The notes under the pieces are model-generated. The model did not search any database. It had not been told where the DNA came from and saw nothing but the letters and a program-made list of their open reading frames with translations. From a virus (Duplodnaviria > Caudoviricetes), in IMG/VR virus record IMGVR_UViG_3300032302_000165, positions 1-42,148 of that record: a stretch of DNA of 42,148 nt, one strand, 5' to 3'. The position numbers and the translations under genes are program-made. Shown here piece by piece: positions 1,909 to 40,854 of this stretch. Numbering within the stretch: the stretch's first letter is position 1; every line of letters begins with the position of its first letter.

Positions 1909-2291
1909 ACCACCACCAGCACCAGGCCGAAATCCTGCACCGGTTGCGAATGTCGGCGATCGAGACGGCCGGCTGTGGTCGGGTGACGATCGCCACCGTG
2001 GAGGCCCTGCTATGGGTCGCCGCGGGGGTGGACAACACCAGGGACCTTGGCGTGGCCATGGGGCAGCCGGGGCGCCCTCAGGCCGTGGCCAGCACCAACC
2101 GGATCCTCTCGGCGCTCCGTGGCCGGGACCGGATGGCGGCAGGGAGATGGGTGCCGGCCCCCTTCCAGTTGGTCAAAACCCGGCGGCACCCGCACCGCCG
2201 CGGCTACCTCCTCACTCTGACCTCGGAAGCCGAAGAGCTGTTGGGGGGCGGGGGGGGGGAGAACAAATACACCCCTGCAGCTGAGTATTAA
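1905..2291 (+). CDS. Winged-HTH (MarR-like) DNA-binding protein
   Basis: ATG 1905 with GGAGG upstream; EALLWVA..TRDLGVAMG..ASTNRILSAL..LVKTRRHPHRRGYLLTLTSEAEELL fits a wHTH with wing. Confidence 0.6.
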   Translation: MNHHQHQAEILHRLRMSAIETAGCGRVTIATVEALLWVAAGVDNTRDLGVAMGQPGRPQAVASTNRILSALRGRDRMAAGRWVPAPFQLVKTRRHPHRRGYLLTLTSEAEELLGGGGGENKYTPAAEY

Positions 2292-2412
2292 AATTGGAAA
2301 CGAGGACTCTAATCCTTTCGATCGAAGTTCCAACCCGTAAGGGTCCATTCCACTTTGCTGCATGGTTGCAGCAGTCCCGTAGCGGTTGCAGGATCAGTCT
2401 ACAGAGGTGTAC
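2267..2412. promoter_or_regulatory. Cluster of three CTRCA-N4-TGYAG-type palindromes upstream of the MarR-int operon
   Basis: ATACA-CCCC-TGCAG 2267-2280; CTGCA-TGGT-TGCAG 2358-2371; CTACA-GAGG-TGTAC 2399-2412; TAAAAT -10-like box at 2289. Confidence 0.6.
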
Positions 2413-2442
2413 TAGTGTCTACTCTAGTGTCCCCACTAGGCC

Positions 2443-2760
2443 ATGGATTTGGTACGACTTGAGGCCGCTCTGGCCGCTTTCTCAGTTCTGGAGCCGACCG
2501 CGCTCCCGCTCCACCACATCCAAGTCTATTTAATGGTCGCAAGGGCTGAGCCGTGCCTTTACGAACAAATCGAGCAGGAACTGGGGCTATCAAATGCCTC
2601 TGTAAGTCGGACGGTAAATGCGCTGTCCGATACCCACCGAACTGGACGCGAAGGCCTCCGCCTGCTTGCAGTCACCAAAGACCCCGAGGAGAGGCGCCGC
2701 TACCTGGTCTCCCTTTCGAGCCGGGGGCGGGCCCTGCTCCGCCAGATCAAAAGCCTCTGA
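2443..2760 (+). CDS. MarR-family transcriptional regulator (repressor or recombination directionality factor candidate)
   Basis: HHIQVYLMVA..EQIEQELGLSNASVSRTVNAL..DPEERRRYLVSLSSRGRALL is a typical MarR wHTH. Lies directly upstream of int, as in T7-like cyanophages. Confidence 0.85.
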   Translation: MDLVRLEAALAAFSVLEPTALPLHHIQVYLMVARAEPCLYEQIEQELGLSNASVSRTVNALSDTHRTGREGLRLLAVTKDPEERRRYLVSLSSRGRALLRQIKSL

Positions 2761-2781
2761 ACCACCTACCAACACCACCCC

Positions 2782-3789
2782 ATGACCGGAGCAGTACGAA
2801 AACGCATGGATGCCAGCGGCCAGATCCGCTGGATTGCTGACGTCACGATCGACGGCAAGCGCCGGCAAGCCAGCGGCCGCACCAAGGCCGAGGCCGAGAA
2901 GAAGCGCCGCGAGTTGAGGGATCGCCTCATGGCCGAGCCCGTGGTGAGCTCCCAGGGGTTCACCCTGGCCCAGGCCCGGCAGCTATCGCTGAAGGTGCGA
3001 TGGGCTGGGCTGCCCTATGAACGAACGGCCGCGATCTACAGCGGCGCAGCGGTGGAGTTCTTCGGACCCTCCACACCGCTCGAATCGATCAACGCCCCAG
3101 CGGTGGAGCAGTGGCGGGCCTCGCTGCGGGGCCAGGGCAACCGGCCGGCCACCATCAACCGGAAGCTCTCCGCCCTCAAGGCGATGTTCAGCGATGCCCA
3201 GCTCCACGGGCGCATCACCACCCGGCCGGCGATGCCCAAGCAGCTGAAGCCCGGCGGCGAGAAGGACCGCGTGATGAGCGACCGCGAGCGGGACCAGCTG
3301 TGCGAATACTTCCAAGCGATCGAGGAGCCCGCCGCCGCCCTGGTGCTGGTGTTCCTCCTCGAAACCGCGGCCCGCTGGGGGGAAGCGGAGCGGCTGCGCT
3401 GGGGCGATGTCGATCTGGAGCGGGGCCGGGTGACGTTCTGGAAGACCAAGAACGGCCAGCCCCGCACCGTGCCCCTAACCGCCCGGGCCCTCGATGCGGT
3501 GAAGGCCTGCGGCGTGCCGGTGCCCAACGCCCGGGTGTTCCCCTACAGCTACGACCGCTATCGCCGGCTGTTCGATCGGGCCAAGGAGCACCTAGGCCTG
3601 GCCCACGATCAGACCCTCACGATCCACACCACCCGCCACACGTGTGCCTCGAAGCTGGCCACCAGGGGGATCAGCCTGGTGCAGCTGATGACCTTCGGGG
3701 GCTGGAGCTCCCTGGCTGCCGTGAAGCGATACCTCCACCTCTCCACCGATGCCCTCTCGGCATGCGTGGAAGCGCTGGAAGCGGGCTGA
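2782..3789 (+). CDS. int: Tyrosine recombinase (phage integrase)
   Basis: Catalytic motifs ETAARWGE (R), KTKNG (K), HTTRH (HxxR), GW and KRYLH (Y); N-terminal arm-binding-like domain. Confidence 0.95.
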   Translation: MTGAVRKRMDASGQIRWIADVTIDGKRRQASGRTKAEAEKKRRELRDRLMAEPVVSSQGFTLAQARQLSLKVRWAGLPYERTAAIYSGAAVEFFGPSTPLESINAPAVEQWRASLRGQGNRPATINRKLSALKAMFSDAQLHGRITTRPAMPKQLKPGGEKDRVMSDRERDQLCEYFQAIEEPAAALVLVFLLETAARWGEAERLRWGDVDLERGRVTFWKTKNGQPRTVPLTARALDAVKACGVPVPNARVFPYSYDRYRRLFDRAKEHLGLAHDQTLTIHTTRHTCASKLATRGISLVQLMTFGGWSSLAAVKRYLHLSTDALSACVEALEAG

Positions 3790-3803
3790 TGGGATCCCGT
3801 ACT

Positions 3804-4113
3804 GTGGATGCGTCCACCCGTTCTCTGGTTGCCGTTTTTTGCTGCCGAATTGCTGCTTTTCCAAGCAGCAGAAGCAGCAATCAAAAACCCGAGAACCCAG
3901 GCCAGGACTGACCGGGGGCATGGCGAAATGGTATACGCAGCGGACTTAAAAACCGCTGCCTACCTTTACGACCCTGCAGAACAGTTCCCCCGACAGGGGT
4001 GAGGATAAGGGGACCCACCTCTACAGGGTCCCGGTGGATTTTCTGCCGTTCGGCCCTGTTGCCGCAGCAAAAAACGGCATGAATTCGGCAAGCAGCAAAT
4101 CCACCACGGTGGA
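3804..4113. mobile_element. attP region: tRNA-derived core flanked by inverted arm-type repeats
   Basis: Core IR GCAGCGG-acttaaaaa-CCGCTGC (3937-3959). Exact 16-bp inverted repeat TGCCGTTTTTTGCTGC 3830-3845 / GCAGCAAAAAACGGCA 4064-4079, plus shorter TGCCGAATT and TTGCTGCTT inverted pairs. Confidence 0.8.
3914..3951 (+). pseudogene. 5' fragment of tRNA-Leu(TAA) (attP core, not a functional tRNA)
   Basis: GGGGGCA-TG-GCGAAATGGTATACGC-A-GCGGA-CTTAAAA gives the acceptor 5' strand, D-arm, anticodon 5' stem and TAA loop. No T-arm follows. Confidence 0.85.
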
Positions 4114-6487
4114 TAGGGACCTTCAGCAGCGGCTGGAATGGCAGGAAGCCACCAACGCGCAGCAGCGGGCCCAGGTGATGCGGCAGGTGCTCCGCCGGTA
4201 TCGCCGGGAGAGCTGCACCGAATACGGGACCGCGTTATTTCAGCTGTTTGCCGATCCCATGGCCCGTGAAGTCGAGGCCATTCTTTATCGCTGGGGCACC
4301 AACCCTCAGCTGGGCGGCCCTGGTTATGCGGCCCTGCCCCTGGTGGCGGCCCTCGGCAGCCCCCAGCGCATCGCGGCGGTGGCCCTAGTCACGATCCTTG
4401 ATCGGCTGAGCCACGCCACCAGCTTCCAAGGGTTGGCGCTGGCCATCGGCCTGGCCGTGGAAGCCGAGGTGAAAGCGGGCGAGATCGAGAAGCGAGCACC
4501 CGCCAGCCTTGAGCGACTGCTTCAGGGCACCACGGCGGAGAAGCGCAAGGCGGTGATGGCGATGGCCGCCCGGCCCATCGAGGGGGGCGGCGCCATCTGG
4601 ACCCGCATGGAGCGGGCGACCGTGGGACTGCTGCTGCTGGAGGTCATCCGGGGCGAAACCGGCCTGGTGCTGATCGACAAGAGCGGCCAGCCCAGCCGGC
4701 GGATGCAGTGGCGGGTGCTGCCATCGCCCCGGGCTCTGGATTTCATCCGGCGCTACCCGCCCCGCAGTCTCCGGCCCAACCGGGGGCCGATGGTGATCGA
4801 GCCAATGCCATGGGAGGGGTTGATGGGAGGGGGGCATCTGGCCAACACCTCCCCGGTGGTGCAGATCCGGGGCAGCCGGAACCACGCCGGCATCAGCTAT
4901 CTGGCGGGTCGGATTGGCCCCCAGCTGGCGGCCGTCAACATCCTGCAGCGGCAGCAGCTGGAGGTGGACCCGTGGATGCTGCAAGTGCAGCGGGAGGCCT
5001 GGGATCGGGGCATCCCCGGCCTGTTCCCGGTTGATCGCGACCCGGTTCCAGATGCGGGGCCGTTCCCCACCAGCGAGCCGCCGGATGTGCAGGATGCCTG
5101 GCGGCGCAACCAAGCCCGGCACCACCAGGACCTGCGAGAAAACAGCTGCCGGCGGCTGGCGATCGAGCGGGCACTGCAAACAGCGGAGGCGCTGGTGGGC
5201 CGGCCGATCTGGCAAGCCCATTTCTTGGATTTCCGGGGCAGGGCCTTCACCTCCAACCGGGCCCTCACCCACCAGGGCCCCGACCACCAGAAGGCGCTGC
5301 TGCGGTTTGGCGCTGGGAAATGTGGCTTGCGCGAAGAGCGCTGGATCTTGACGGCAGCGGCGGGGCACTGGGGCCTGACGCGCAGCAGCTGGAAAGCTCG
5401 ATGGAGCTGGGGCATGCAAGAGGCGTGGCGACTGGAGGCAATCGCGGCCGATCCAATCGGCAAGGCCGACCTATGGCGGAGGGCCCGGCAGCCCTGGCAG
5501 TTCCTGCAGATGGCGCGGGCGTGGTCTGACCCGGGGGAGGCTTGCCGGGTGCCCATCCGGCTGGATCAAACCTGTTCCGGGGCCGGGATCATCGCCACTC
5601 TGCTGAGGGATCGAGCGATGGCCGAGCTGTGCAACGTCTGCGGCACGGGCCCGAACGATCTCTATTCCGCCGTGGTGGAACGCTTGCGCCACCAGCTGGA
5701 GATCGACCTGCACACCGGGGACGCCGATACGCATCAGCTCGCCGCAGGCTGGCTGGAGCTCGGCATCGATCGCAGCTGGGTGAAATCGGCGGTGATGTTC
5801 ACCCCCTACGGCGGCACACCGAGGTCGGTTGCCGACGGGATTCGGAATCAGCTTCAGCAGCGGCTGGGCCCTGTTGATGACTGGGTGGGCCGAATCCACC
5901 GGCCAAGCGACTACCTCGAATCCAGGCTGCGGAGGGTGGTCGCCACCGAAACCGCTTGCCTGATGCAGCTGCGCCGCTGGCTCTGCGACGTGGGCCGGCT
6001 GGTGGTGGGCGGGCACCAGCAGCAGATCAGATGGACCACGCCGATGGGCTGGCCCATGCAGGTGGGGAAGCCCACGCCCTCGAAAAGCGTCGTCCGCACT
6101 CACTTGCTGGGCAAGTTGGCCAGCGTCAGCTTCGACGAGGACCCGCCGGACGGAGAGCTCAGCGCCCGGAAAACCAACGCCAGCATCACCGCAAACCTGA
6201 TCCACAGCTTCGATGCCGCCCTGGTGCATGCCGTGGCATCCAGGGCTGGAGAGCAGGGAGCCCCACTGCTGACCAACCACGACTGTTTTGTCACTGATCC
6301 AGCCAACGCCAGCTGGCTGCAGAAAACGCTGCTCGATGAGTTCCGGGCCCTCTATGCCACCGACTGGCTGGGGGAGATTGCCGAGGAAATCCGCTCCAAT
6401 GCAGGAGTTCAGGCAGTCCCGCCGCCCCCGGCGCGGGGAGGGCTGCAGGTCGGGGAGATCGGCGAAAACCTGTACCTGTTCAGCTAG
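4034..6487 (+). CDS. T7-like single-subunit DNA-directed RNA polymerase (true start may be ATG 4079 or GTG 4109)
   Basis: DFRGR, motif A LDQTCSG, motif B KSAVMFTPYG, NLIHSFDA, motif C NHDCF, C-terminal YLFS. Confidence 0.95.
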   Translation: MDFLPFGPVAAAKNGMNSASSKSTTVDRDLQQRLEWQEATNAQQRAQVMRQVLRRYRRESCTEYGTALFQLFADPMAREVEAILYRWGTNPQLGGPGYAALPLVAALGSPQRIAAVALVTILDRLSHATSFQGLALAIGLAVEAEVKAGEIEKRAPASLERLLQGTTAEKRKAVMAMAARPIEGGGAIWTRMERATVGLLLLEVIRGETGLVLIDKSGQPSRRMQWRVLPSPRALDFIRRYPPRSLRPNRGPMVIEPMPWEGLMGGGHLANTSPVVQIRGSRNHAGISYLAGRIGPQLAAVNILQRQQLEVDPWMLQVQREAWDRGIPGLFPVDRDPVPDAGPFPTSEPPDVQDAWRRNQARHHQDLRENSCRRLAIERALQTAEALVGRPIWQAHFLDFRGRAFTSNRALTHQGPDHQKALLRFGAGKCGLREERWILTAAAGHWGLTRSSWKARWSWGMQEAWRLEAIAADPIGKADLWRRARQPWQFLQMARAWSDPGEACRVPIRLDQTCSGAGIIATLLRDRAMAELCNVCGTGPNDLYSAVVERLRHQLEIDLHTGDADTHQLAAGWLELGIDRSWVKSAVMFTPYGGTPRSVADGIRNQLQQRLGPVDDWVGRIHRPSDYLESRLRRVVATETACLMQLRRWLCDVGRLVVGGHQQQIRWTTPMGWPMQVGKPTPSKSVVRTHLLGKLASVSFDEDPPDGELSARKTNASITANLIHSFDAALVHAVASRAGEQGAPLLTNHDCFVTDPANASWLQKTLLDEFRALYATDWLGEIAEEIRSNAGVQAVPPPPARGGLQVGEIGENLYLFS

Positions 6488-6530
6488 GCCCTAGCGCTGG
6501 CGCTAGTAGGTGCGCTAGTGTCTGGGAGCC

Positions 6531-6544
6531 CTACACCCCTGCAG
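6531..6544. promoter_or_regulatory. Palindromic site upstream of ssb
   Basis: CTACA-CCCC-TGCAG, 3 nt before ATG 6548; TAGTGT -10-like box at 6516. Confidence 0.6.
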
Positions 6545-6547
6545 AGC

Positions 6548-7204
6548 ATGGCATCCGAAACGCTGGTCACCCCGGCCGGCGAGGTCCTGTTTGCAAACGT
6601 CCTCAAGCCCAAGCTGATCAAGAACGATTCGGGCGAAAAAATGCAGTACGGAATCGTGCTGCTGCAAGCAGATCCCGAGCAAGACTCTGGCGCCAAGTTA
6701 TTTATTGGCTCCCTGCACAAAGCGTTCATGGACCACTTCGGCGGCAACGCCAAGTACGGCCCAAACGGAAAGCCGTGGAAGCGCGAAACAACCGTCAACA
6801 GTGAAGGCATTGAAATCCCTACCGGCCTGGTCCGGATCACGTTTAGCCGTGATGTGATGACGGCGCGTGGCACCGAGCTGCCACAGCCCATGGTGCAAGA
6901 CGCCAAGGGGAATCCCTGGCCGGTCGATGTAGCAATCGGCAACGGTTCAGTCTGCAAAATCGCCTATTCCTATTACCTGTGGGACAACCCCAAGGGAGGA
7001 AAGGGGCTGAGCCTGCAGCTGCTGGGTGTTCGTATTCTCCAGCACGTTCCCTACGCCATGCAAGCCGTCGATCCCGGCGTCTTTGGTGCGCCCGAGGAGG
7101 GCACGGACGCCACCACCCTGGGCCCTGCTGCAGCGGATCCGTTTGGGACTTTTATCCCTTCCGATGAGGCCGGTCCCGTCAGCACTGAAGAGGTGCCCTG
7201 GTGA
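6548..7204 (+). CDS. ssb: T7 gp2.5-like single-stranded DNA-binding protein
   Basis: LVTPAGEVLFANVLKP..IGNGSVCKIA..GLSLQLLGVRIL; acidic tail ending in Trp; position after RNAP. Confidence 0.85.
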   Translation: MASETLVTPAGEVLFANVLKPKLIKNDSGEKMQYGIVLLQADPEQDSGAKLFIGSLHKAFMDHFGGNAKYGPNGKPWKRETTVNSEGIEIPTGLVRITFSRDVMTARGTELPQPMVQDAKGNPWPVDVAIGNGSVCKIAYSYYLWDNPKGGKGLSLQLLGVRILQHVPYAMQAVDPGVFGAPEEGTDATTLGPAAADPFGTFIPSDEAGPVSTEEVPW

Positions 7205-7284
7205 GCCAAGAAATCAAAATCACGCGGTCATTTTCCGCACACGGCCAGGGCGAGCTGTTCGACGACCTGGGAGAGGATGAATGA
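7201..7284 (+). CDS. 27-aa micropeptide with QGELF motif
   Basis: MSQEIKITRSFSAHGQGELFDDLGEDE; GTGA and ATGA overlaps with both neighbours; GAGGTG SD upstream. Confidence 0.55.
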   Translation: MSQEIKITRSFSAHGQGELFDDLGEDE

Positions 7285-7760
7285 ACATCCTGGCGATTGA
7301 TCCAGGCCCGGTGCAATCGGCCCTTGTGTTGCTTGGCCCTGATCGAAAGATCCTTGAGGCCAGCATCGAGGGCAACGAAGGGGTCGCCAGTCTCCTCAAA
7401 AATGGCGGCTTTTGTAATCGCCTCGGCTACGTCTGGCCCCACTTGGCAATCGAAATGATTGCCTCCTACGGGATGCCCGTGGGGGCGGAGGTCTTCGAGA
7501 CCTGCACTTGGATCGGTCGCTTCGAGGAGGCCTTTGCCCACAAGGCCCAGATGGCTCGCTACTTCCGTAAGGACATCAAGCTGCATCTATGTGGTGTCAC
7601 CAGGGCCAAAGATTCCAATGTTCGGCAGGCATTGACTGATCTGCTGGGCCCCGCCGGTGTCAAGAAGGAGCCCGGCCCTACTTACGGGATCAAAAAAGAT
7701 ATGTGGGCAGCGCTTGCTGTTGCCGTCTACGCCCATCACGTTCTCAGCCAACCGAAATGA
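7281..7760 (+). CDS. RuvC-like (RNase H fold) Holliday junction resolvase
   Basis: ILAIDPG, LAIEM and C-terminal DMWAALAVA acidic motifs. Confidence 0.75.
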   Translation: MNILAIDPGPVQSALVLLGPDRKILEASIEGNEGVASLLKNGGFCNRLGYVWPHLAIEMIASYGMPVGAEVFETCTWIGRFEEAFAHKAQMARYFRKDIKLHLCGVTRAKDSNVRQALTDLLGPAGVKKEPGPTYGIKKDMWAALAVAVYAHHVLSQPK

Positions 7761-8782
7761 CCACTACCGCACCACCCCCTGAAGCCGAGGCCTTGGCCAC
7801 GGCGCCCAAGGCCATCGTCATCAGCCAGTTTGATGTGCTGCTGGGCGACATCAAGGAGGCCACTGCGGCAGCCGTTGATGTCACGTTCGACTACAACACC
7901 AAGGAGGGCAACAAGGCCGCCCGCAGTTACATCTTTGCGATCCGCAAGCTGAAGGCCCGGATCGAATCAGCACGCACCGACGCCAAGGCCTATGCCCTGG
8001 CCTATGGCCGCAAGGTCGATAGCCAGGCCGCAGAGCTCAAGGATCAGGTGGATGCGCTGATCAAGCCGCACCAGGATGCGATCGATGCCATCACCAAGGC
8101 CGAGGCCGATCGGGTGGCCAGGCACCGCGAGGTGATTGGCGTTATCCAGAACGCTGCCCGGATCCCGTTTGGGGCTGGCTCTGAGGCGATTGCCACCACC
8201 TTGAGGGACGCCAAGGCCGCCGACATCGACGGGCTGGAAGAGTTCAAGGAGGAGGCTGCCGCCGCCCTGCTGGAAACGATCCGCACCCTTGAAGCCGCGC
8301 ACACCAAAGCCCTGGCCGACGAGGCCGCCGCTGCCGAGCTGGCCCAGCTGCGCGAGCAGCAGCGGATCCAGCAGGAGAAGGACGCCGAGGACGCACGTAT
8401 CAAGGCACAGCAGGAAGCCATCGCCGAAGCGGCTCGCAAGGCGCAGGAGGAGGCCAATGCTGCCGCGCTGCTGGCGATCCAGGAGGCCGAGCAGAAAGCG
8501 GCTGAAGCCGAGGCCAGGGCCGAGGCAGCCGAGGCCGATGCTGCGGCCCAGCTGGCGGCTGCAAAGTTGGCTCAACAGGCTGCAGCGGCGGCTGAAAAGG
8601 CGGCTCAACCAGCTTTTGTGCCGGGTCGCCTTGAACATCTTCCCATCGTGAGCAATCTCAGGGCTCGTTTGTTGTCGAATCTGCTAGTTGCAATGGAAGA
8701 GAAGAGCCGATTCCAGGTCGCTGAAGGCCTGGTGGACGGCACCCTGCACCCGGCCATCACGATCGACTGGAGCAAGGTCTGA
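7757..8782 (+). CDS. Ala/Glu-rich coiled-coil protein (DUF1351-like)
   Basis: FDYNTKEGNKAARS..RKLKARIESARTDAK..GRKVDSQA..LIKPHQ pattern typical of temperate-phage recombination-region proteins. Confidence 0.6.
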   Translation: MTTTAPPPEAEALATAPKAIVISQFDVLLGDIKEATAAAVDVTFDYNTKEGNKAARSYIFAIRKLKARIESARTDAKAYALAYGRKVDSQAAELKDQVDALIKPHQDAIDAITKAEADRVARHREVIGVIQNAARIPFGAGSEAIATTLRDAKAADIDGLEEFKEEAAAALLETIRTLEAAHTKALADEAAAAELAQLREQQRIQQEKDAEDARIKAQQEAIAEAARKAQEEANAAALLAIQEAEQKAAEAEARAEAAEADAAAQLAAAKLAQQAAAAAEKAAQPAFVPGRLEHLPIVSNLRARLLSNLLVAMEEKSRFQVAEGLVDGTLHPAITIDWSKV

Positions 8783-9390: not shown

Positions 9391-9919
9391 CCCGGAAGCC
9401 TTTACCCGTGGCTGCCGCATGATCGAGCGGCACATCAGGACCAGGGCAGATGCAGCTTGGAGCACCGAGGATTTCAAACTGAAGTTTGTGTCATTCAGCT
9501 CCGACTTCCCGGAGGTCAGCACACCCCAGTTTCTCTGGGCCTGCGAGCGCTGGATCCAGGGGGCCACCGGTGAGTTCCTTCGCTTCCCGACGTGGCGACA
9601 GCTGATGGTCCCGCTCTATCGGTGCCAATCGGGGGCGCCGAATCGAGCATGGGGATTCAAGGAGGACCTGCCTCGATCGCTCCAGCCAACGCGCCAGCAG
9701 CTGGCCATGCTGCCGTCGGGCTTGGCCTCGGCTCCGCCGGATGGTGCCGAGAACCCGGCCGCCTACCGCTTGGTGTCAGCCGGCGGTGATGGACAGCGCT
9801 TGCTGCCGGCGGTCGCCTCGGATTCCCCGGGCCTCACACGTGAGGAGTGGGCCGAGTACCTGCGGGAGCGAGATCGACTGAAAGAACAGCAGCGGCAGGA
9901 CCATGCCTCTGCTGTCTAA
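9380..9919 (+). CDS. Putative helicase loader/inhibitor (SPP1 G39P or lambda P analogue)
   Basis: FLWACERWIQ..FLRFPTWRQL resembles the G39P-like F.PT..l motif; directly follows the initiator candidate. Confidence 0.45.
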   Translation: MLLDPEAFTRGCRMIERHIRTRADAAWSTEDFKLKFVSFSSDFPEVSTPQFLWACERWIQGATGEFLRFPTWRQLMVPLYRCQSGAPNRAWGFKEDLPRSLQPTRQQLAMLPSGLASAPPDGAENPAAYRLVSAGGDGQRLLPAVASDSPGLTREEWAEYLRERDRLKEQQRQDHASAV

Positions 9920-10408: not shown

Positions 10409-11163
10409 CCGATCAACCCAGGGCCCTGGTGGATGCGGAGCTCTACCTTCGCCGCTGCACCGCCGCAGCTGAATACGAGATCGAGTGGGCGCCAGATGAC
10501 TGGACCTACGTGTGCCGCCACGGCCAGGCCAAGGCCAGTTTCCAGGACTTCCTTGCGTCCATCCGCGACGCGCTGCCCGACCACCAGCTGCACCTATGCC
10601 TCGGCACTGCCGCCAGCTTCCGCTACTCCGTGTTCTCCCCCTACAAGGCGAACCGAAAGGCCAGCCGCAAACCGGCCGGCTACAACCAGCTGATCCAATG
10701 GGTGGTCGCAGCCGGGGAGGTGCGGGGCTGGAACATCGCCATGCTGGCCGAGGTCGAGGCCGACGACGTGATGGGGATCCTTTGCCGCCCTGGTGATGTG
10801 ATCGTCTCAGAGGACAAGGACATGCTGGGGATCCCTGGCCTGCACCTTCGAGGCACGGAATTCGTGGAGGTTTCTCAGCGCGAGGCTGACATCAATGTGT
10901 TCTCGCAGGCGCTGATCGGCGACACCACGGACAACTACCCCGGCTGCCCTGGCATCGGCAAGGTGAAAGCCGAGGGCATCCTGGCCGGACAGCCCGATGC
11001 TGCAGCGATGTGGGCGGCCGTGTTGAAGGCCTTCGAGAAGGCCGGCCTCACCCGCCGGGACGCCATCACCCAGGTGCGGCTGGCCCGCATTTTGCGTGCT
11101 GGCGAATATGACGTGGATCGAGAACTGCCGATCCTGTGGAACCCACCTGACGACACGCCGTAG
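10405..11163 (+). CDS. T7 gp6-like 5'-3' exonuclease
   Basis: ALVDAE, FR..YKANRK, EADDVMGI, SEDKDM, GDTTDNYPGCPGIG, QVRLARILR; GTG start with GGAGG SD. Confidence 0.93.
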   Translation: MTDQPRALVDAELYLRRCTAAAEYEIEWAPDDWTYVCRHGQAKASFQDFLASIRDALPDHQLHLCLGTAASFRYSVFSPYKANRKASRKPAGYNQLIQWVVAAGEVRGWNIAMLAEVEADDVMGILCRPGDVIVSEDKDMLGIPGLHLRGTEFVEVSQREADINVFSQALIGDTTDNYPGCPGIGKVKAEGILAGQPDAAAMWAAVLKAFEKAGLTRRDAITQVRLARILRAGEYDVDRELPILWNPPDDTP

Positions 11164-11176
11164 CATGGGCCAAACT

Positions 11177-11190
11177 CTGCAGCCCTGTAA
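11177..11190. promoter_or_regulatory. Palindromic site at the start of the structural operon
   Basis: CTGCA-GCCC-TGTAA overlapping ATG 11190; TAGCAT at 11161. Confidence 0.6.
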
Positions 11191-11402: not shown

Positions 11403-11810
11403 ATGTGCGCGGGCGGAGGGGGTGCGGCGACTATCTACAAACCCGACACAACGGCCTATGACGCAATGGCCAATCAACAGCTGGCCTTGATGCAGCAGGT
11501 GCAGAACACTGACGTGCTGACCAAGCAAAGCCAGCTGGATGCGTTGTTACGCGACAAAACCGGGCTGCAAGCCCAGGAGCAGGCAATCGCCACGGCCCGC
11601 GCCAACAACACCACGGCCCAGGCGGTCCGGCTGGCTGCATTGATTGGCCCGCCGCCTCCTGAAAAGTCCGCGTCGGCCCCGGTGATTGGCTCCGACCGCG
11701 CCGGCGAAAAGCGGCCAACTGGTAAGCAGGACTTACGAATTGATCGGGCAGCCGCGACGACTGCCGCCGGCCCTGGCGCCGGACTCAACATCATCACGGG
11801 GAGCTATTGA
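11403..11810 (+). CDS. Small virion/tail assembly protein (gp6.7/gp7.3-like), paralog 1
   Basis: MC-Gly start, GKQDLRI, GAGLNI near the C-terminus; upstream of portal. Confidence 0.65.
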   Translation: MCAGGGGAATIYKPDTTAYDAMANQQLALMQQVQNTDVLTKQSQLDALLRDKTGLQAQEQAIATARANNTTAQAVRLAALIGPPPPEKSASAPVIGSDRAGEKRPTGKQDLRIDRAAATTAAGPGAGLNIITGSY

Positions 11811-15149: not shown

Positions 15150-15174
15150 AGTTGTAACATCGGCGCGACGACTG

Positions 15175-15188
15175 CTGCACCTGTGTAG
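15175..15188. promoter_or_regulatory. Palindromic site upstream of major capsid gene
   Basis: CTGCA-CCTG-TGTAG; TAACAT at 15155. Confidence 0.6.
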
Positions 15189-15345
15189 TGCTGGCCTTCC
15201 TGCGGGAGAGGTCCGCACACCATTCACCGGTCAAGTCAGCCGTTACAGCTACAGCGTCTCTGCATCGTTTGGCCCTCCAAGGGGGAACCGCTGAACACAG
15301 GTTGCAAGAAGCCACGGGCAAACAACCCAACAGCTTTTTGCAACC

Positions 15346-16395: not shown

Positions 16396-16421
16396 GCCCT
16401 CGGCTCGCCGGGGGCTTTTTT
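16396..16421 (+). terminator. Rho-independent terminator after capsid gene (T-phi position)
   Basis: GCCCTCGG-ctcg-CCGGGGGC followed by T6. Confidence 0.85.
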
Positions 16422-16462
16422 GCGGCAACCGATAGCATGTGCTCTGCACTGCTGGATCGCTC

Positions 16463-31879: not shown

Positions 31880-31893
31880 ATACACAGCTGCAG
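31880..31893. promoter_or_regulatory. Palindromic site upstream of tail fibre gene
   Basis: ATACA-CAGC-TGCAG(AGTAT), 9 nt before TTG 31903. Confidence 0.6.
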
Positions 31894-33981: not shown

Positions 33982-33999
33982 AAGTGCGGGCGAAACACT

Positions 34000-34013
34000 C
34001 TGCATCCCTGTAG
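34000..34013. promoter_or_regulatory. Palindromic site overlapping TAGCAT -10-like box
   Basis: ACTCTGCA-TCCC-TGTAGCATGA; nearly identical to the site at 34499. Confidence 0.65.
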
Positions 34014-34036
34014 CATGAAACGATTGGTTGAGGCCC

Positions 34037-34291: not shown

Positions 34292-34482
34292 TTCTTAACC
34301 ACAATTTTCAGGACTGGATGATGGCCGCCGCCGTGGCGCATGCCATTGCCGTGGTGATCGTGAACCTGACCCCGACCCCCCGCGATGACGATGCCCTGAG
34401 CACCTTCGATCGAGCCTTGGTGAAGGGTTACCGGGCGCTGGAGCTGTTGGCTGGCATCGTCACCAAGCTGGCCAAAAGCTAG
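34288..34482 (+). CDS. Small holin-like membrane protein
   Basis: AVAHAIAVVIVNLTPTPRDD..YRALELLAG. Confidence 0.55.
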   Translation: MILNHNFQDWMMAAAVAHAIAVVIVNLTPTPRDDDALSTFDRALVKGYRALELLAGIVTKLAKS

Positions 34483-34498
34483 GCATCGGCCAAATGCT

Positions 34499-34512
34499 CT
34501 ACATCCCCGTAG
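34499..34512. promoter_or_regulatory. Palindromic site overlapping TAGCAT -10-like box
   Basis: GCTCTACA-TCCC-CGTAGCATGA. Confidence 0.65.
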
Positions 34513-34538
34513 CATGAGGGGAGCCCCGCCCATCCCCA

Positions 34539-35618
34539 GTGCCCATCTACCCCGAACCCAAGCCGGCAACAACGAACGGAACGCCATTCCGCGACTCGTT
34601 TGCTGATGGCATTGTCAACGCCTCACTGTGGGCCGCCACTGTGGGGTTTGGCACGATCTCGGAATCAGCCGGAACGCTGACCATGGGCAGTGGCACCACG
34701 GCAAATAACGTCACCAGCTTGCTTTCCACACAGGTATTCCATCTGCCCGCAAAGGTGGCGGTCGGCTTGTCGCTAAGTCAGCGAATTGCCAACCAAACAT
34801 TTTTTATCGAGTTGGTATCTATTAACGATTCGGGAGTGCCTGATGGCTTGGAATTAGCTGGCCTGGTATTTGACGGAACTACCGTCACTCAGGCCAAGCA
34901 TCAAGTGCGATCGGGAGGCCTGACCGCAAACCAATCGGCCGCATCGACCTATCCGAGCACGGGGACCCCGGCCAAATTATTTGAAATTGAAGCCTCATAT
35001 GATGAGGTTTGGTTTCACGGTTCGGCAGCTCTTGATAGCGCCGTTGGCCGCGTCAATAGCTATCGGCTTCAACTCAAAGCACCCAGCCCAAACACCAACT
35101 ATAAATTACAGCTACGGTGGCTAAATGGTGCCACTGCACCGGCCAGTAATACCAATGCGCTGGTGACATTCCTGTCGGTCATTGAGTACGAGGAGCTAAC
35201 CACTGAGGTGCTTGGCGGTCGGGGAACAAACGCCGCTGGGGCGGCCCCATCGGTGCTGGTCGCTGGCGGCAGCGCTGAAAATCCATTGCCGGTGGTGGTG
35301 CTCGATGGCAGCGGCACCGGCACAGCGCTGGGCTTGCCAACGGCTGACGCTCAGACCTCAGTGGCAACCTCGACCACGACGGTGCAGCTGCTGGCCGCCA
35401 GGACGACCAGGAAGCGATTGCTGATTTTCAACCCATCAGGAGGTGCAGCGCTCAGTATCGGAAGCGCCACACCGGTGACGACCGCAAACACGTTTGTGAC
35501 AATCCCCGCCGGGAATGGAGTGTTTATGGATCAAGCAGATTTCACGGGCGTAGCTGGAGCCTGGTACGGCCTGCTGGCATCAGGCACCAGCACCGCCCAG
35601 GTGCGGGAGTCATATTGA
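34539..35618 (+). CDS. Beta-rich putative virion/fibre accessory protein
   Basis: 359 aa, Thr/Ser/Gly-rich; C-terminal QLLAARTTRKRLLIFNP domain. Confidence 0.6.
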   Translation: MPIYPEPKPATTNGTPFRDSFADGIVNASLWAATVGFGTISESAGTLTMGSGTTANNVTSLLSTQVFHLPAKVAVGLSLSQRIANQTFFIELVSINDSGVPDGLELAGLVFDGTTVTQAKHQVRSGGLTANQSAASTYPSTGTPAKLFEIEASYDEVWFHGSAALDSAVGRVNSYRLQLKAPSPNTNYKLQLRWLNGATAPASNTNALVTFLSVIEYEELTTEVLGGRGTNAAGAAPSVLVAGGSAENPLPVVVLDGSGTGTALGLPTADAQTSVATSTTTVQLLAARTTRKRLLIFNPSGGAALSIGSATPVTTANTFVTIPAGNGVFMDQADFTGVAGAWYGLLASGTSTAQVRESY

Positions 35619-36595
35619 TGAAAAGCGCTTTTCTGTTTGATGGGACGGCTGATCTGCTGAATTTTGTTCAGCCATCTGCACTAGTTGATTATCAGTTCCG
35701 CCTGCAAGGAACGCTGACAAATTACGGCAGTGTTGGCGGGTCGCTAACACTGACTCGCTCCGGCAACGGTACGTTTATTGGCAGCAACGGCCTATTGCAA
35801 ACAGCCAGCACAAACGTTGCGAGGTTTGATTTTGATCCCGTGTCACTGACGCGGCGAGGATTGTTGTTTGAGGGGCAGGCTACAAATCTTGTCCGCGATA
35901 GTGAAGACTTTGCCGGACTTGGCTGGGTTCTTGCCCAATCTATTATGTTTGGCACAACAAGAACTACTTACACAGGACTGTTGCCAAATGGAAATACTGG
36001 CACTATTTATAGATTTGTATTTAGTGGAGGCACGGCTGGCTACTCTATTGCTTGGAATGGTTCAAATACTCCGCAAGCAAACGTTGCAGTCCCGGCCGCA
36101 TCTGTTTGGATTAAAAGAGTATCGGGGGCGGCTAGTATAAATTTATACATTCAATCAACTACTACTGGACCGCCCTCAGCTGCATGGGCATCTGAAGAAT
36201 TTACACTTACCAGCGAATGGCGGAGATATGGTTTTGCCAAGGCTTTGACTGGAACCAAGGCCGGAAATTTGGGCATTTTTATCGGTAATGATAGTCGGCC
36301 AACTGGCGGCACATTTTCTGCTGTTACTGTTGACGTGTATGGCGCCCAACTGCAGACAGATCGGGTTGACTCGTATATCCCAACCGCCGGTGCAACCGCA
36401 ACCCGCTTCGCTGATGCCGCCAGCCTGACCGGCCTCCCAACGACAAACGTCACGCTGGTCGAGAAGCCAGCCGGTTGTGCAACCCTGTCAGCCGGCACCT
36501 TGACCCTAAACACGGGCTACACAATCGACCGAATCATGGTGCTACCTGGCACTTATTCAGCCGATCAGGTTGCAACCATCCGGGGGCTGATGTGA
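35618..36595 (+). CDS. Head-spike/fibre-like protein with carbohydrate-binding-like module
   Basis: TRSGNGTFIGSNGLLQTA..RFDFDP..GLLFEGQATNL and YGAQLQ..SYIPT..ATRFAD motifs. Confidence 0.7.
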   Translation: MKSAFLFDGTADLLNFVQPSALVDYQFRLQGTLTNYGSVGGSLTLTRSGNGTFIGSNGLLQTASTNVARFDFDPVSLTRRGLLFEGQATNLVRDSEDFAGLGWVLAQSIMFGTTRTTYTGLLPNGNTGTIYRFVFSGGTAGYSIAWNGSNTPQANVAVPAASVWIKRVSGAASINLYIQSTTTGPPSAAWASEEFTLTSEWRRYGFAKALTGTKAGNLGIFIGNDSRPTGGTFSAVTVDVYGAQLQTDRVDSYIPTAGATATRFADAASLTGLPTTNVTLVEKPAGCATLSAGTLTLNTGYTIDRIMVLPGTYSADQVATIRGLM

Positions 36596-36711
36596 TGCCG
36601 TTCAGTGTCATCGAGGTGCTCTGTTGGTGCCCAGGCCATTACGACCGATGCTGCCCAGCTCGGCAGCACGGTTGCAAACGCTAGCGATGTGCAGCTGGCA
36701 ATTTCTTACGT

Positions 36712-36831
36712 CTAACCCTCCTGAGAGACCGACACGAACACCGTGCCCTTGGCCAACAGGGGCACGATCTTGTCGCGCAGCCTGAAGCCGAACTGGTGAG
36801 GCGTTTTGGTTGGGCCGACGAGCTGAGCCAT
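36712..36831 (-). pseudogene. 39-aa ORF resembling an internally deleted L,D-transpeptidase-like gene
   Basis: MAQLVGPTKTPHQFGFR|LRDKIVPLLAKGTVFVSVSQEG; both halves recall the termini of cyanophage YkuD-like proteins (from memory). Confidence 0.4.
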
Positions 36832-36844
36832 GATGGGTTGAGAG

Positions 36845-36858
36845 CTACACCCATGTAA
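36845..36858. promoter_or_regulatory. Palindromic site between divergent starts (36831 minus, 36861 plus)
   Basis: CTACA-CCCA-TGTAA. Confidence 0.6.
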
Positions 36859-36860
36859 CC

Positions 36861-37151
36861 GTGGCCGATCACCAAGAACAACTGGAGTCGATCCAGGCCA
36901 AGCTGCTGAAAGAGATCGACGAGGCCCTTGATGTCCGTGTTCTTGAAGACGGCAGTGTGAGAGTGCCGACCGACGAGGACAAGCGCCTGGCCCTGGCGGT
37001 GCTCAAGCACAACGGAATCACCTCCTCAATTGGTGATTCGCAGAGGGAAAAGCTCAAGGCAAAGATCAGCAGCAACATCGACAGCAGCCGCATCAGGGAA
37101 AAGCGCCGCCTGGTGGCGCTGCCCACCCCTCCGGTGGAGGGGGCGGCGTGA
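36861..37151 (+). CDS. terS: Terminase small subunit (T7 gp18-like)
   Basis: EDKRLALAVLKHNGIT resembles the gp18 LKDNGI motif; size and adjacency to TerL. Confidence 0.7.
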   Translation: MADHQEQLESIQAKLLKEIDEALDVRVLEDGSVRVPTDEDKRLALAVLKHNGITSSIGDSQREKLKAKISSNIDSSRIREKRRLVALPTPPVEGAA

Positions 37152-37159
37152 TTACCCAT

Positions 37160-39067
37160 CTATCCGGATTTTCCGGATGGTTGGGCCAAGGGCCGCGGCT
37201 CCCGGCTGACGCCTCCCTGGGGCCCCCGTTGCGCCGGCCGCCGACCGCCCAGCACCAGGGTGTCGATCGCGCTCGCGTCATCGCTCAGAAACAGCTCCAG
37301 CAGGGCATCCTCCTCTTCATCCACCCGCCGCTGCTGCTCCTTCTCCTGGTCCTTTGCCAGCAAATCCAGGAAATGCTTCACGCCAAACGAGAGCACGTCC
37401 GCCCGGTCGTCCCATTCCAGGCTGCCCTTCTCAATCGTGATGCGTGAGAGCTGATACGGCAGGGAGCGGAGGTGGCCATGCTCCGGGTCCTGCTCGGCCT
37501 CGGCATAGCTGCGCTGCAGCACCTGCTTGGCCACAATCAGTCGGTGCTGCTGGATCAACGGCGCCAGAAGGTCCACAATCCGCCGCTCCTTCTGCTGGCT
37601 AACTCGCTCCTCCTCGACCATGACCCGGTAGATCCGGGTCATTACCGGTTGCAGCAGGGCCGCAAACATGCCATCGCCGAAGTTGGACTCGGCCTTCACC
37701 GTGACGACCCTCCAGTGCTTGGCACGCTGGGCCAGCATCGTCAGCACCTCCTCCCCGTAGCCGGCGCTGGTGCCGCCCTCTTCAAGCAGGAAGATGTTGC
37801 CGTTGAGCTCCGCCATCACGCACCAGGCCAGCTCGTCCTTGCCGCGGCCGGAAGGATCGATGAACAGGCCGGCGTTCCACTTCTCCTCCCGTGGCAGCCA
37901 GCTACCGAGGACCTTCGGCTTGTGGTAGTGCCGATCGGCGCCCATCCCCACGCACACCAGATCGGTGTGGCGCAGCTCGGCATCGTCAAACCAGACCACC
38001 AGCTCCGGCAGGGCCTTCCCATCCAGCGACAGCACCACCAGGTCGCCAAGGCGGATCGGATAGCGATCGGCTGTGCTGATCCTGGTGTTCAGCATCCACT
38101 GCAGCTGCCAGTTCTGGCGGCTCAGCCGGCTCTGGCGGCCCAGCAGTTCTTCGTGATCGAAGCGCTCCGGATCGGTGGGCATCCCCACCAGCTCCGGATG
38201 CGCCTGCACCTCCGCAGCAATCAACGGATCAAGGTGCCCCTCGTAGGCCCCCCACTCGTCCGGCTTGCTGGGATCCGGATACCGGCAGGGCCAGAAGCGG
38301 ATGGCATAGCCCCGCTCGCGCACCAGCCGCCAATAGAGGCTTGTTTCAAGGTGAGGGGTGCCCTTGTAGCAGATCTTCCGCGGGAACACCTGCCGCACCT
38401 GGTCGGCCATGTCGTAGCTGGGAGGATTCGCTGCGTCCCAGTCACGATCGGCCGGCTTGATGATCGATTCGAGCTCGCTGATTGCGTGAAACAACCGCTC
38501 GACCTTGAGCGGTGTGATCGAGTTGTTCAGGGTCTCGATGTCATCGGGCACGATGAAGGTGGCCCGCTTCCCGGTCAGCGCTGACGCCAGAATCCCCGAG
38601 GCCCGCACAGAAGGCGCCTGCTCCGCCCCGATCCGGGCCGGCGCCACATTGAACGCACCGGCAGCCTTGAGACCATCAGGCCGCGGCTGCAGGCACCGCA
38701 AGATGTCGATGCTCTGGGTCCAGGCCAGCATCTGCCCGGTGATCTCTGCCGCCTTCTCGTCCGTGTTCGAGGCGATCAGCACCCGCTCATTAAAGGGATC
38801 GATCCGCAGCCGCCGCATCGCATCGATGGCGGCCAGCGTGGACTTGGCCACCCCCCGGAAACCGACGGTGATCTGGAACTGGGGGCCTGAATCGCCCCAC
38901 TCGATGATGCCCAGCTGCTGCTTGGTTGGCTCATCGGCCAGGCCCAGCTCCTGCAGGATGTAGGCCGCAAACGCATCGGCCGGCCACAGCTCCTCTGGCA
39001 GCGGCTCCCAATCAGGGATCAACGGGAAACCCCCGCCAAGGCAAGCCCGGACGGGGATCTCCTGCAC
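37160..39067 (-). CDS. terL: Terminase large subunit (T7 gp19-like DNA maturase B)
   Basis: GFRGVAKS Walker A, LTGKRA, DDIE Walker B, DPSGRGKDE, ESNFGDGMF, QKERRI, DDRADVL. Confidence 0.95.
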   Translation of the reverse strand: MQEIPVRACLGGGFPLIPDWEPLPEELWPADAFAAYILQELGLADEPTKQQLGIIEWGDSGPQFQITVGFRGVAKSTLAAIDAMRRLRIDPFNERVLIASNTDEKAAEITGQMLAWTQSIDILRCLQPRPDGLKAAGAFNVAPARIGAEQAPSVRASGILASALTGKRATFIVPDDIETLNNSITPLKVERLFHAISELESIIKPADRDWDAANPPSYDMADQVRQVFPRKICYKGTPHLETSLYWRLVRERGYAIRFWPCRYPDPSKPDEWGAYEGHLDPLIAAEVQAHPELVGMPTDPERFDHEELLGRQSRLSRQNWQLQWMLNTRISTADRYPIRLGDLVVLSLDGKALPELVVWFDDAELRHTDLVCVGMGADRHYHKPKVLGSWLPREEKWNAGLFIDPSGRGKDELAWCVMAELNGNIFLLEEGGTSAGYGEEVLTMLAQRAKHWRVVTVKAESNFGDGMFAALLQPVMTRIYRVMVEEERVSQQKERRIVDLLAPLIQQHRLIVAKQVLQRSYAEAEQDPEHGHLRSLPYQLSRITIEKGSLEWDDRADVLSFGVKHFLDLLAKDQEKEQQRRVDEEEDALLELFLSDDASAIDTLVLGGRRPAQRGPQGGVSREPRPLAQPSGKSG

Positions 39068-39113
39068 CTACCGGACGGGCTACCACACCCAACCGACGAA
39101 GCCAGCATACCGC

Positions 39114-39638
39114 TCACTCCGGAACGTCCCCGTTGCCCTCGTCCACCAGGTTTTGCACCTGGGCAATCAGCTCATCCCTGGAGACCCATCGATTGAGCTT
39201 CACCCCGAACTGATCCGCGGCAAAGGTGACCAGCTGTGTCTTGGAGAAACTGGAGAAATCGCGGTCCTCGATCTGCTGATCCACAGCGGCCGGCATTGCT
39301 TCCTCTTCGCCAGTGGCCTCCTGCTCCGCCTCCTCGGCCCCTTCCTGCACGATCTCCAGCGGAGACCGCCACTGGCCGGCTGGGGCCTCTTCGGCGGCAT
39401 CCTGGCCCGCTGTGGCGGGCTCGTCCTCGGCCCCCTGCGCCTTTTCGGCCCGCTGCGTTGCCAGCCGCTCCTCCAGCTCCAGCGCATCCGCCAGCCTCAA
39501 CCGCAGCGACTCCTCCCCGGGCACGTAGCTCCCACGCGCCAGCTGTTGCTCAAGTCCCTGCTGCACAGCCCAAGGCGGAACATCCGAGCCAAAACCGGTC
39601 AGCCACAGAGCCTCCTTCTCGCTGTTGCTCAGGTACAT
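39114..39638 (-). CDS. Acidic protein with C-terminal HeH/Rho-N-like motif
   Basis: FSSFSKTQLVTFAADQFGVKLNRWVSRDELIAQV; palindrome ATCCA-CCCA-TGTAC overlaps its ATG. Confidence 0.65.
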   Translation of the reverse strand: MYLSNSEKEALWLTGFGSDVPPWAVQQGLEQQLARGSYVPGEESLRLRLADALELEERLATQRAEKAQGAEDEPATAGQDAAEEAPAGQWRSPLEIVQEGAEEAEQEATGEEEAMPAAVDQQIEDRDFSSFSKTQLVTFAADQFGVKLNRWVSRDELIAQVQNLVDEGNGDVPE

Positions 39639-39679
39639 GGGTGGATCGCAGCGTCAGGCGAAATCTAACGCCGGATCCC

Positions 39680-40129
39680 TCAGTCCTCCATGTCACCGCC
39701 ACAGTCGAAAGCCTCCTTGAACTGAGACCACAGGTGCCCCTCCTTCTGTGCCCTCCCGATCGAAAACAGGTTTGGGTCCAGCAGGTAGTACAGCTCCCCA
39801 GTCCGGCGGTTTCGGCAGCGCACCACCAGGTACTCCTTCCGCAGCCGAGTAATCGTCGTGTGGACGTTCGGCTCCTTGGTTCCCGATAGCTCCGCCAGGT
39901 ACGCCACGCTCGCCTTGATCCGCCCCTGGTCCCTCCCGGCGGCCTTGCACATGCACATCTGCAGAGCTCGCACAACCACCAGGTCACGCGGTTGCAATCG
40001 CTTCTGCCGCAGCAGCAGCAGCAGCCTGTCTTCCGTGGCGCTGGTGTCCGGCATGTAGGTCTTGATGAAATGCCTAGAGTCCATTCGTTGATCGCGTTTG
40101 GGGCGGTCAGACAGCCCGTTTGCATCCAC
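39680..40129 (-). CDS. Winged-HTH protein, RepL-like (start may be ATG 40084)
   Basis: SVAYLAELSGTKEPNVHTTITRLRK HTH followed by YYLLDPNLFSIG, similar to the RepL-family Y.lNP...G motif. Confidence 0.6.
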   Translation of the reverse strand: MDANGLSDRPKRDQRMDSRHFIKTYMPDTSATEDRLLLLLRQKRLQPRDLVVVRALQMCMCKAAGRDQGRIKASVAYLAELSGTKEPNVHTTITRLRKEYLVVRCRNRRTGELYYLLDPNLFSIGRAQKEGHLWSQFKEAFDCGGDMED

Positions 40130-40854
40130 TTCTGGTTTCGCAGCCCAGTCGTGGAGAGGGTTGTCGTTTTGGTCCTATATCGGACCGGATAAAGCTACCC
40201 CCTGAAACCCCCTCCACAACAGGCCGGCTTGGTATTCGCTCTAATGATCTCTCTAGTGATCCCATAGCAGCCGTCGATCCAAGGCCTCCGGTTGCCCGGC
40301 CTCATCGGTTCCCCCCCACCCCCCACACACACATCCCCTCTTCCACCGTGTGAATCCCGACGGAGCGAAGCGCAGACGGGATGCCCCGCCGGCGAGGCGG
40401 GCTGTTTACGGGCGATGGGGGGGCGAAGCCGTACGAGACACCATCCTCCCAATCACGGGATCCACTGCAGCCCTGGTGTCCACTGCTCCCCCAGCGCCCC
40501 GGAAAATGTGGCGCATTTGGTCGGGGGGTCCCCCAAGCGCTTGGCAAGCCAATCCCCCCCGGTGGGGTGGCCTATCTGCCCTGGCTGGGAGCCGTTGGCC
40601 ATGGATCCGGCAGCAGTAGAGACAGAACAGGGGCAGGGCAGGGGGTGTCGGTGGATTGAACATCCGCTGCAGGGTCAGACTGCCGTGGTGGCCAGGGGCA
40701 GGGGCCATCCGTCAACCCCCCTTTTGTAACGATTTACAACAACAGAGCAAAAGGCCCTTCCCCCAACCATTCCATCTGTGTAGTCTATGGAGGCCAGGGG
40801 AACCGCTGAGAACCGCGGAGCCTGGCACCACCTACCAACCAACCGAAGGAATCA
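40130..40854. promoter_or_regulatory. Large divergent non-coding control region (candidate early promoter, origin or genome termini)
   Basis: No convincing ORF; several hairpins; perfect IR TTGTAA-cgat-TTACAA 40724-40739; TAGTCT -10-like box at 40781. Confidence 0.55.

Follow-up and report, generated by a model that had tools for sequence, protein, structure and literature searches.

The stretch of DNA analyzed here (the window) is the 42,148-nt virus record IMGVR_UViG_3300032302_000165, a complete circular phage genome of 42,025 bp (63% GC) whose ends overlap by 123 bp. The phage is T7-like, freshwater, and infects cyanobacteria. Its genes follow the T7-like order of MarR-like regulator, integrase, RNA polymerase (RNAP), ssb, resolvase, exonuclease, portal, scaffold, capsid, tail tubes, fibre and terminases, and every block is preceded by one or more copies of a 14-bp dyad, CTRCA-N4-TGYAG. 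Fourteen such sites had been listed in a preliminary description of the sequence, and all 14 read exactly as given there. The network that they form is real and conserved, and it is likely to be functional. The genes that matter most for its interpretation, followed by the sites themselves, are:

2443..2760, plus strand: MarR-type winged-helix regulator, the proposed binder (105 aa; PHROG 9665)
2782..3789, plus strand: tyrosine integrase (PHROG 1, E 1e-51)
3913..3956, plus strand: attP core, the 5' half of a tRNA-Leu, between integrase and RNAP and conserved in relatives
4034..6487, plus strand: T7-like RNA polymerase, catalytic motifs present
2267..2280: dyad in the last codons of open reading frame (ORF) 1905-2291, upstream of the MarR leader; kept in 10/10 aligned rows
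2358..2371: dyad in the MarR leader; kept in 4/5 close relatives, lost in G004
2399..2412: dyad adjoining the -10-like box 2413-2418, 24 nt before the MarR start
3966..3979: dyad before the RNAP gene, 14 bp beyond the anticodon-loop end of attP
6531..6544: dyad before ssb, predicted +4 to +17
11177..11190: dyad before the head operon; the ATG at 11190 begins on its final base
15175..15188: dyad at the start of the 170-nt capsid leader
16444..16457: dyad before tail tube A
31880..31893: dyad before the tail fibre
34000..34013: dyad overlapping the -10-like box 34011-34016; region too diverged for the box alignment test
34499..34512: dyad overlapping the -10-like box 34510-34515
36845..36858: dyad before terS
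39633..39646: dyad containing the start codon of the minus-strand gene 39638-39114
40770..40783: dyad overlapping the early operon's -10-like box, 40781-40786; TANNNT in register in 8/8 rows

Exact matches to CTRCA-N4-TGYAG number only four, and all are intergenic, in a genome where intergenic DNA makes up 7.4% of positions; at one mismatch or fewer there are 19 matches, nine intergenic and ten coding. The intergenic counts at 0, 1 and 2 mismatches (4, 9 and 21) compare with means of 0.03, 0.46 and 5.1 in dinucleotide-shuffled intergenic DNA, and none of 300 shuffles reached the observed values. Exact intergenic matches occur at a spacer of 4 only (spacers 0-10 tried), the pattern ranks first of 84,480 intergenic dyads (Poisson p 6e-9, ∼5e-4 corrected), and a single-strand motif search with no symmetry imposed also recovers it. 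A multi-copy, conserved dyad enriched outside genes, as expected of a repressor operator network, is therefore what the enrichment check suggested at the outset has found. That the network arose by chance, or from the composition of GC-rich leaders, is exceedingly improbable: CTGCAG-type words are indeed common in these genomes, and ten of the 19 one-mismatch matches are coding, but most coding matches are not conserved in relatives, and the shuffle, spacer-length and look-elsewhere tests, together with conservation at orthologous places, refute this explanation.

Two of the 14 sites need some revision. Site 2267 has the sequence claimed for it, but is not intergenic, and site 40770, which had been called weak, ranks 9 of 42,012 windows and is retained in 5/5 relatives. 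There are also two possible additional sites, both within genes, where their conservation may reflect protein constraint: 6238..6251 in the RNAP gene (10-16 bits in 5/5 relatives) and 39951..39964 in the winged helix-turn-helix (wHTH) gene 40129-39680 (equal score in 5/5 relatives).

Comparison of the sites with their orthologues in 12 close relatives shows a core, N-T-V-C-A-N4-T-G-B-A-N, that hardly varies, whereas the spacer and flanks drift. Positions 2, 4, 5, 10, 11 and 13 are conserved at 0.99-1.0, the flanking columns at 0.79-0.95; the latter is the background level, so that the RCT/AGY flank previously described as part of the site is unsupported. Orthologous sites were chosen by the best matrix score near the aligned place, a choice that favours conservation, and plain alignment with no matrix choice agrees for 11/14 sites in all relatives aligned. 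The core persists in relatives down to 35% RNAP identity, and the motif lies at orthologous places in S-SRP02, S37-C6, S31-C1 and S38-C3, so the sites are kept in related phages as the preliminary description had asked. Core mismatches are evenly spread between the arms (one left and one right, of 42 each). Positions 3 and 12 are complementary in 15/68 distinct site variants, and the element is therefore a double-stranded dyad rather than a hairpin; a hairpin promoter of the N4 type was rejected on the same count. In cyanobacteria, the LexA box has a spacer of 2 and the NtcA box a spacer of 8, and neither fits the spacer of 4 seen here.

The protein encoded at 2443..2760 is predicted to have the winged helix-turn-helix MarR fold: its model (predicted local distance difference test, pLDDT, 85) finds MarR proteins as top Foldseek matches (E 1.5e-5, template modelling score 0.6-0.7), with Pfam MarR_2 below cut-off at 19 of 27 bits. 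A homodimer is predicted with an interface score (ipSAE) of 0.61 versus 0.00 for the best of three controls (contacts agree 97%, pLDDT at least 83), above a mark reached by 20/30 solved homodimers and 1/23 single chains, although this pass may stem from likeness to solved MarRs. The recognition helix reads SNASVSR, with S55-R56 invariant. The best-studied likeness is to pMarR (gp0.7, PSSP7_011) of Prochlorococcus phage P-SSP7, a dimeric protein of 37% identity whose S66, R67, D91, P92 and G106 align with S55, R56, D80, P81 and G95 of the window's MarR; R67 is required for DNA binding (PMC9692554). It differs in having been studied as an activator of a host gene, with no consensus site given in the available text (PMC9692554), and P-SSP7 itself has mainly a repeated left half-site with no clear dyad. 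Words similar to that half-site repeat also stand before genes in the MarR-negative P60 and P-SCSP1b.

Twenty-seven of 31 genomes were compared for the presence of MarR and of the dyad. A matrix made from the 14 window sites alone gives z 5.0-9.7 in 10/21 other genomes, each of which has MarR, whereas the MarR-negative Syn5, P60 and P-SCSP1b score z -0.8 to 0. The family dyad is present in 11/22 MarR-positive and 0/5 MarR-negative genomes; the pooled matrix was trained on the window, LUZ100 and RHEph01, and gene calls came mostly from a simple caller. De novo dyads in the MarR-negative Syn5, P60 and BOESR1 (z 2.7-4.2; 12 shuffles each) are unrelated words. S-CBP2 has both MarR and the window motif and an RNAP that is 50-51% identical to those of Syn5 and P60, which have neither, and 23% identical to the window's. 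In LUZ100, for which transcription starts were mapped in PMC10134795, a sister dyad recurs ∼12 times and, at the mapped host promoters P1 and P2, fills the stretch between -35 and -10, so that here a site overlaps mapped promoter elements; the mapped phage promoter of LUZ100 is a separate, asymmetric motif, and RHEph01 carries both motifs too. Two more MarR-positive phages have variant dyads of the same 5-4-5 shape, TCTCG-N4-CGAGA in YIMV22061 and GTGCC-N4-GGCAC in S-TIP37. These accompany changed MarR helices, and the pairs are a possible immunity code.

These comparisons bear on the alternative raised in the preliminary description, namely that the dyads are promoters of the phage RNAP, and they disfavour it; we regard it as very unlikely. 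The specificity loop of the RNAP differs in every sub-lineage (S-SRP02, S37-C6, S31-C1, S38-C3), while the MarR recognition helix is constant. The motif is shared by phages whose RNAPs are 23-41% identical and have dissimilar specificity loops, is missing from phages with closer RNAPs but no MarR, and differs from the mapped or evident phage promoters of LUZ100 and RHEph01. T7-type promoters are asymmetric with a fixed purine start, but the window sites have a symmetric core, the position that follows them varies and shows no conserved purine, a start codon falls within site 39633 and another begins on site 11177, and conserved -10 boxes stand at varying distances. In favour of phage promoters, the placement of the sites fits the general T7 promoter layout, the dyad's 3' end resembles the last bases of the Syn5 promoter (PMC3950665), the window yielded no further multi-copy promoter, and the spacer, as had been claimed, is C-rich on the sense strand (C/(C+G) 0.77 vs 0.58 in other leaders, p 0.008).

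A binder other than this MarR is comparably improbable. The window also encodes a MarR paralogue at 1905, the wHTH protein at 40129-39680 and an NrdR-like zinc-ribbon protein at 8782, and a host factor would explain conservation of the motif across RNAP lineages. The recognition helices of these other regulators vary within the clade, however, and the motif does not; profiles of the two wHTH proteins (1905 and 40129-39680) have no match in S-CBP2, LUZ100 or RHEph01, where the 8782 protein was not profiled. As for a host regulator, Syn5 and P60 infect Synechococcus yet are without the motif, and exact dyads are sparse in five cyanobacterial assemblies (10-19 per 2.3-3.5 Mb, vs four in the 42-kb window), two of the ten in one of these (G005) lying on its phage contig.

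The dyads are associated with sequences that resemble the -10 element of sigma70-type promoters. At 11/14 sites such a box is overlapped by the dyad, adjoins it or precedes it, and the six TANNNT hexamers named earlier (11161, 15155, 16433, 34011, 34510 and 6516) are all at those places. Boxes that stand apart from their dyads, with the terminator that precedes one of them, are:

6516..6521, plus strand: -10-like box of the ssb/middle operon, a conserved TANNNT in 4/4 relatives
11161..11166, plus strand: -10-like box of the head operon, conserved
15155..15160, plus strand: -10-like box before the capsid leader
16402-16416: capsid terminator
16433..16438, plus strand: -10-like box after the capsid terminator, identical offset in S-SRP02 and S37-C6
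31868..31873, plus strand: -10-like box CAGAAT before the tail fibre
36829..36834, plus strand: -10-like box CATGAT before terS, identical offset in S-SRP02
39662..39667, minus strand: -10-like box for gene 39638

A fully conserved sense TANNNT lies within -22..+15 of 8/14 sites (controls, 2.8% and 0.13%) and an antisense one of 0/14, with the TA belonging to the dyad itself at two of the eight; a conserved YANNNT is found in the same interval at 12/14 sites, vs 15% of control windows. Site 2267 has no fully conserved YANNNT adjoining, and site 3966 has no TANNNT box. The TAG of box 11161..11166 is also the exonuclease stop, and the box is retained in relatives where it is not a stop. Distances from box to start codon are 20-29 nt at 9/11 promoters, with similar offsets in S-SRP02; for the genes that follow sites 34000 and 34499, the probable starts are 34037 and 34539, respectively. 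Starts were predicted 7 nt after each -10-like box, and on this basis sites 2399, 34000, 34499 and 40770 cover approximately -26 to -10, and seven others (6531, 11177, 15175, 16444, 31880, 36845 and 39633) cover the predicted start or the first 23 transcribed bases.

The attP region shows a further regularity. Contigs match 3913-3956 and then continue into the 3' half of a tRNA-Leu, and ARAGORN finds no whole tRNA in the window; integrase and attP are both present, as in a classical lysogeny system. Site 3966 lies exactly 14 bp beyond the tRNA core in 70/72 public loci (38/40 distinct), with varied spacer sequence. In two relatives (L033 and L034, near 9808-9861) attP holds a different tRNA half and the downstream site is unchanged, which would represent a switch of integration target.

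We consider it probable that the 14-bp dyads are operators for a dimer of the MarR encoded at 2443-2760, at which predicted host sigma70-type promoters of all blocks are repressed. In this configuration each subunit would read N-T-V-C-A through the invariant S55-R56 helix, and the dimer would repress promoters of the early, MarR-integrase, middle, head, tail, lysis and packaging blocks. At the four sites over -26 to -10 it would block sigma, and at the seven downstream sites it would occupy the start or the initial 23 transcribed bases. MarR would regulate its own expression through the three sites that precede it. Integration at tRNA-Leu would place the RNAP gene behind the tRNA promoter of the host, where site 3966 would act as a roadblock to read-through. 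Once MarR no longer bound, all blocks would be freed at the same time. The outcome may be stable lysogeny, or no more than a short hold or a timer. Of the earlier proposal, that one MarR regulator acts at every module is well supported by the sequence comparison; its second part, stable lysogeny, is confronted by the failure to find an integrated copy.

One relative (G003) carries a natural lesion in this gene. Its MarR is a 47-aa protein without the DNA-binding domain, removed by an in-frame deletion between short repeats (C1:4918-5059, minus strand), and its operators are retained and 25 other anchor genes are open (30 queried). An in-frame loss in an open genome hints that lytic growth can do without MarR, and G003 is possibly a natural clear-plaque variant. 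In P0029 the MarR gene is frameshifted, which may be a sequencing error.

A number of results weigh against the repressor reading. Nine of the 22 MarR-positive genomes have no clear network (S-CBP3, S-SRP01, SS120-1, P-SSP7, P-SSP2, CRP-114, HTVC019P, HTVC200P and Lo5R7ANS), and 8/11 positives belong to one clade, so that only three or four lineages are independent. The LUZ100/RHEph01 matrix scores z 1.3 on the window sites, and the reverse gives z 0.2 and 1.7; with no cross-detection between the matrices, what links the family is a common shape and core. The spacer is directional, its C bias lying on the sense strand, and in LUZ100 the 12 sites all share a single orientation. Searches for a phage RNAP promoter apart from the dyad, by expectation-maximization on upstream regions, by conserved repeated 17-mers and by look-alikes of the Syn5 promoter, gave none in the window, and yet the phage RNAP looks intact by its catalytic motifs. 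G003 is a single assembly, not checked with reads. No integrated copy was found in 401 host-family genomes (24 with an RNAP match, seven of these examined) or among 71 phage att loci, where incomplete genomes and collapsed assemblies can hide integrated copies; the seven excised matches comprise three phage-sized contigs, one decayed remnant and three lone RNAPs. LUZ100 gave no lysogen (PMC10134795) despite its strong dyad network, S-TIP37 and related cyanopodoviruses integrate without stable lysogens (PMC8776855), and for T7-like cyanophages in general the same source reports no repressor identified and no stable lysogen obtained.

Lastly, -35 boxes were not found at the predicted promoters, and two-hexamer sigma70 scans gave 0 and 4 matches, none at a site; an activator could thus be required. 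The corresponding alternative, the main rival though one that we hold to be unlikely, is that MarR binds the dyad but activates or times lytic transcription, recruiting host RNAP to weak promoters equipped with a -10 box alone, in the way that pMarR acts at the host rne promoter. The lack of lysogens, the seven sites at or downstream of the predicted start, and the published action of pMarR, which activates while bound downstream of a start site and makes contact with RNAP alpha (PMC9692554), are in keeping with this. Activation is harder to reconcile with the four sites that cover or adjoin the -10 box itself, with site positions that span -26 to +23, unlike one activator geometry, with the near-consensus promoters P1 and P2 of LUZ100, where the site is in the spacer, and with G003, whose MarR has no DNA-binding domain.

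Dispersed operators served by one repressor are known from phage P1 (C1). A close precedent for the MarR operators proposed here is the MarR/integrase lysogeny switch put forward for temperate T7-like phages (Pasto, LUZ100), which has the same order of MarR, integrase, att and RNAP, and for which MarR control of lysogeny through sites flanking the RNAP promoter was hypothesised (PMC10134795, citing Boeckman 2022); the sister dyad occurs in LUZ100 and RHEph01. There the sites flank a promoter before RNAP (PMC10134795), whereas those of the window precede every block, next to -10 boxes of host type, and a multi-copy phage promoter is not evident. The cluster A mycobacteriophages L5 and TipsytheTRex are alike in having one repressor and many genome-wide sites, at promoters and in short gaps and with an orientation bias, but their stoperators are 13-bp asymmetric sites bound by a two-domain monomer (PMC9283540) rather than a 14-bp dyad and a predicted MarR dimer. 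Identity with stoperators was rejected, the site being a dyad and the protein unrelated. P2 Cox and 186 Apl are also small regulators with sites at promoters and att, but they favour lysis and bind tandem arrays (PMC5882170), whereas the window has a single site in fixed 14-bp phase to attP.

Among named genomes, the nearest are those of Synechococcus phage S-SRP02 and of three uvMED phages (Nohivirus, Oinezvirus and Stopalavirus; PMC8790148), with RNAPs 35-40% identical to the window's, MarRs 45-55% identical, a like gene set and orthologous sites. The available text of PMC8790148 has no occurrence of promoter, operator or palindrome, and the PhageProm sheet 'others' lists all four phages, the dyad not being among the S-SRP02 repeat groups seen in the accessible part (PMC11880802). 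Our literature search found no paper giving the dyad consensus or a genome-wide map, Boeckman 2022 being known through the citing paper only. The MarR-lysogeny idea is already in print; what is new is the cyanophage case, the host promoters before late genes and the attP phasing, and the finding extends a published hypothesis rather than describing a new kind of system. It supplies the consensus missing from the pMarR work, and a defined 14-bp site for a conserved phage MarR makes the lysogeny question directly testable in culture, with S-SRP02 and Synechococcus SR-C1. If the repressor reading is true, capsid, tail and packaging genes would be read from host-RNAP promoters, unusual for a T7-like phage, and one MarR would shut every gene block at once, which amounts to a dormancy switch.

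A broader scheme can be put forward as speculation that we ourselves find rather doubtful. In the S-SRP02-like clade, host sigma70 promoters would run the middle and late genes and one MarR dimer would gate them all, phased also on attP so that silencing is coupled to integration direction, as a Cox-like master switch. The phage RNAP might then retain one promoter or two at the most, or be used in DNA entry or priming, in a genome where neither a DNA polymerase nor a primase-helicase was found. Varying by lineage, the operator family would act as an immunity code for temperate Autographiviridae, and integration without lysogeny in P-SSP7-like phages would be explained by its decay there.

Several other observations concern the dyads and their surroundings. 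The start codon often occupies dyad positions 9-11 (LUZ100 35002 and 14661; S-CBP2 4087, 6214 and 13972; window 39633), and other sites lie directly after a stop codon or inside DNA polymerase and RNAP genes, as roadblocks would. CTAG occurs three times with a 12-bp period at 2412-2439, before MarR, and at 6491-6518, before ssb. This element is the second-ranked intergenic dyad, and CTAG-centred palindromes precede the MarR and ssb genes in S-SRP02 and the uvMED phages too; the repeats score poorly as additional MarR operators, and are possibly sites of a second regulator. A stretch near 2333 that resembles the Syn5 promoter was rejected, as it is a GNRA hairpin whose loop is changed in one relative (G001). 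One metatranscriptome contig aligns from 11186, near the predicted start, and a second one runs across the ssb promoter; since starts cannot be read from contigs, neither was used. The capsid leader (15175-15345) is strongly conserved over 170 nt and contains hairpins, and Rfam gives no matches in the window, this leader included.

Elsewhere in the genome, an AC-rich leader repeat (CACCTAC...) stands before early genes and the integrase (327, 2763, 40829, 41175, 41417 and 41789), with clade-specific versions in relatives and twin hairpins at 283 and 41745. Neither a DNA polymerase nor a primase-helicase was found among the 46 ORFs scanned; the replication block contains a 341-aa protein of unassigned function (7757-8782; PHROG 1376). 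Lone T7-like RNAP genes occur in cyanobacterial chromosomes (G100 C1:1109169, G277 C1:748695 and G343 C1:673670), with no other anchor gene within 60 kb. The longest perfectly conserved non-coding runs, 40124-40165 and 40378-40406, lie beside the wHTH gene 40129-39680 and are candidates for an origin, a genome end or a single phage RNAP promoter. Finally, the sequence of window 11454-11486 was found between two CRISPR-like repeats in a contig of run X1, i.e., as a spacer against the phage.

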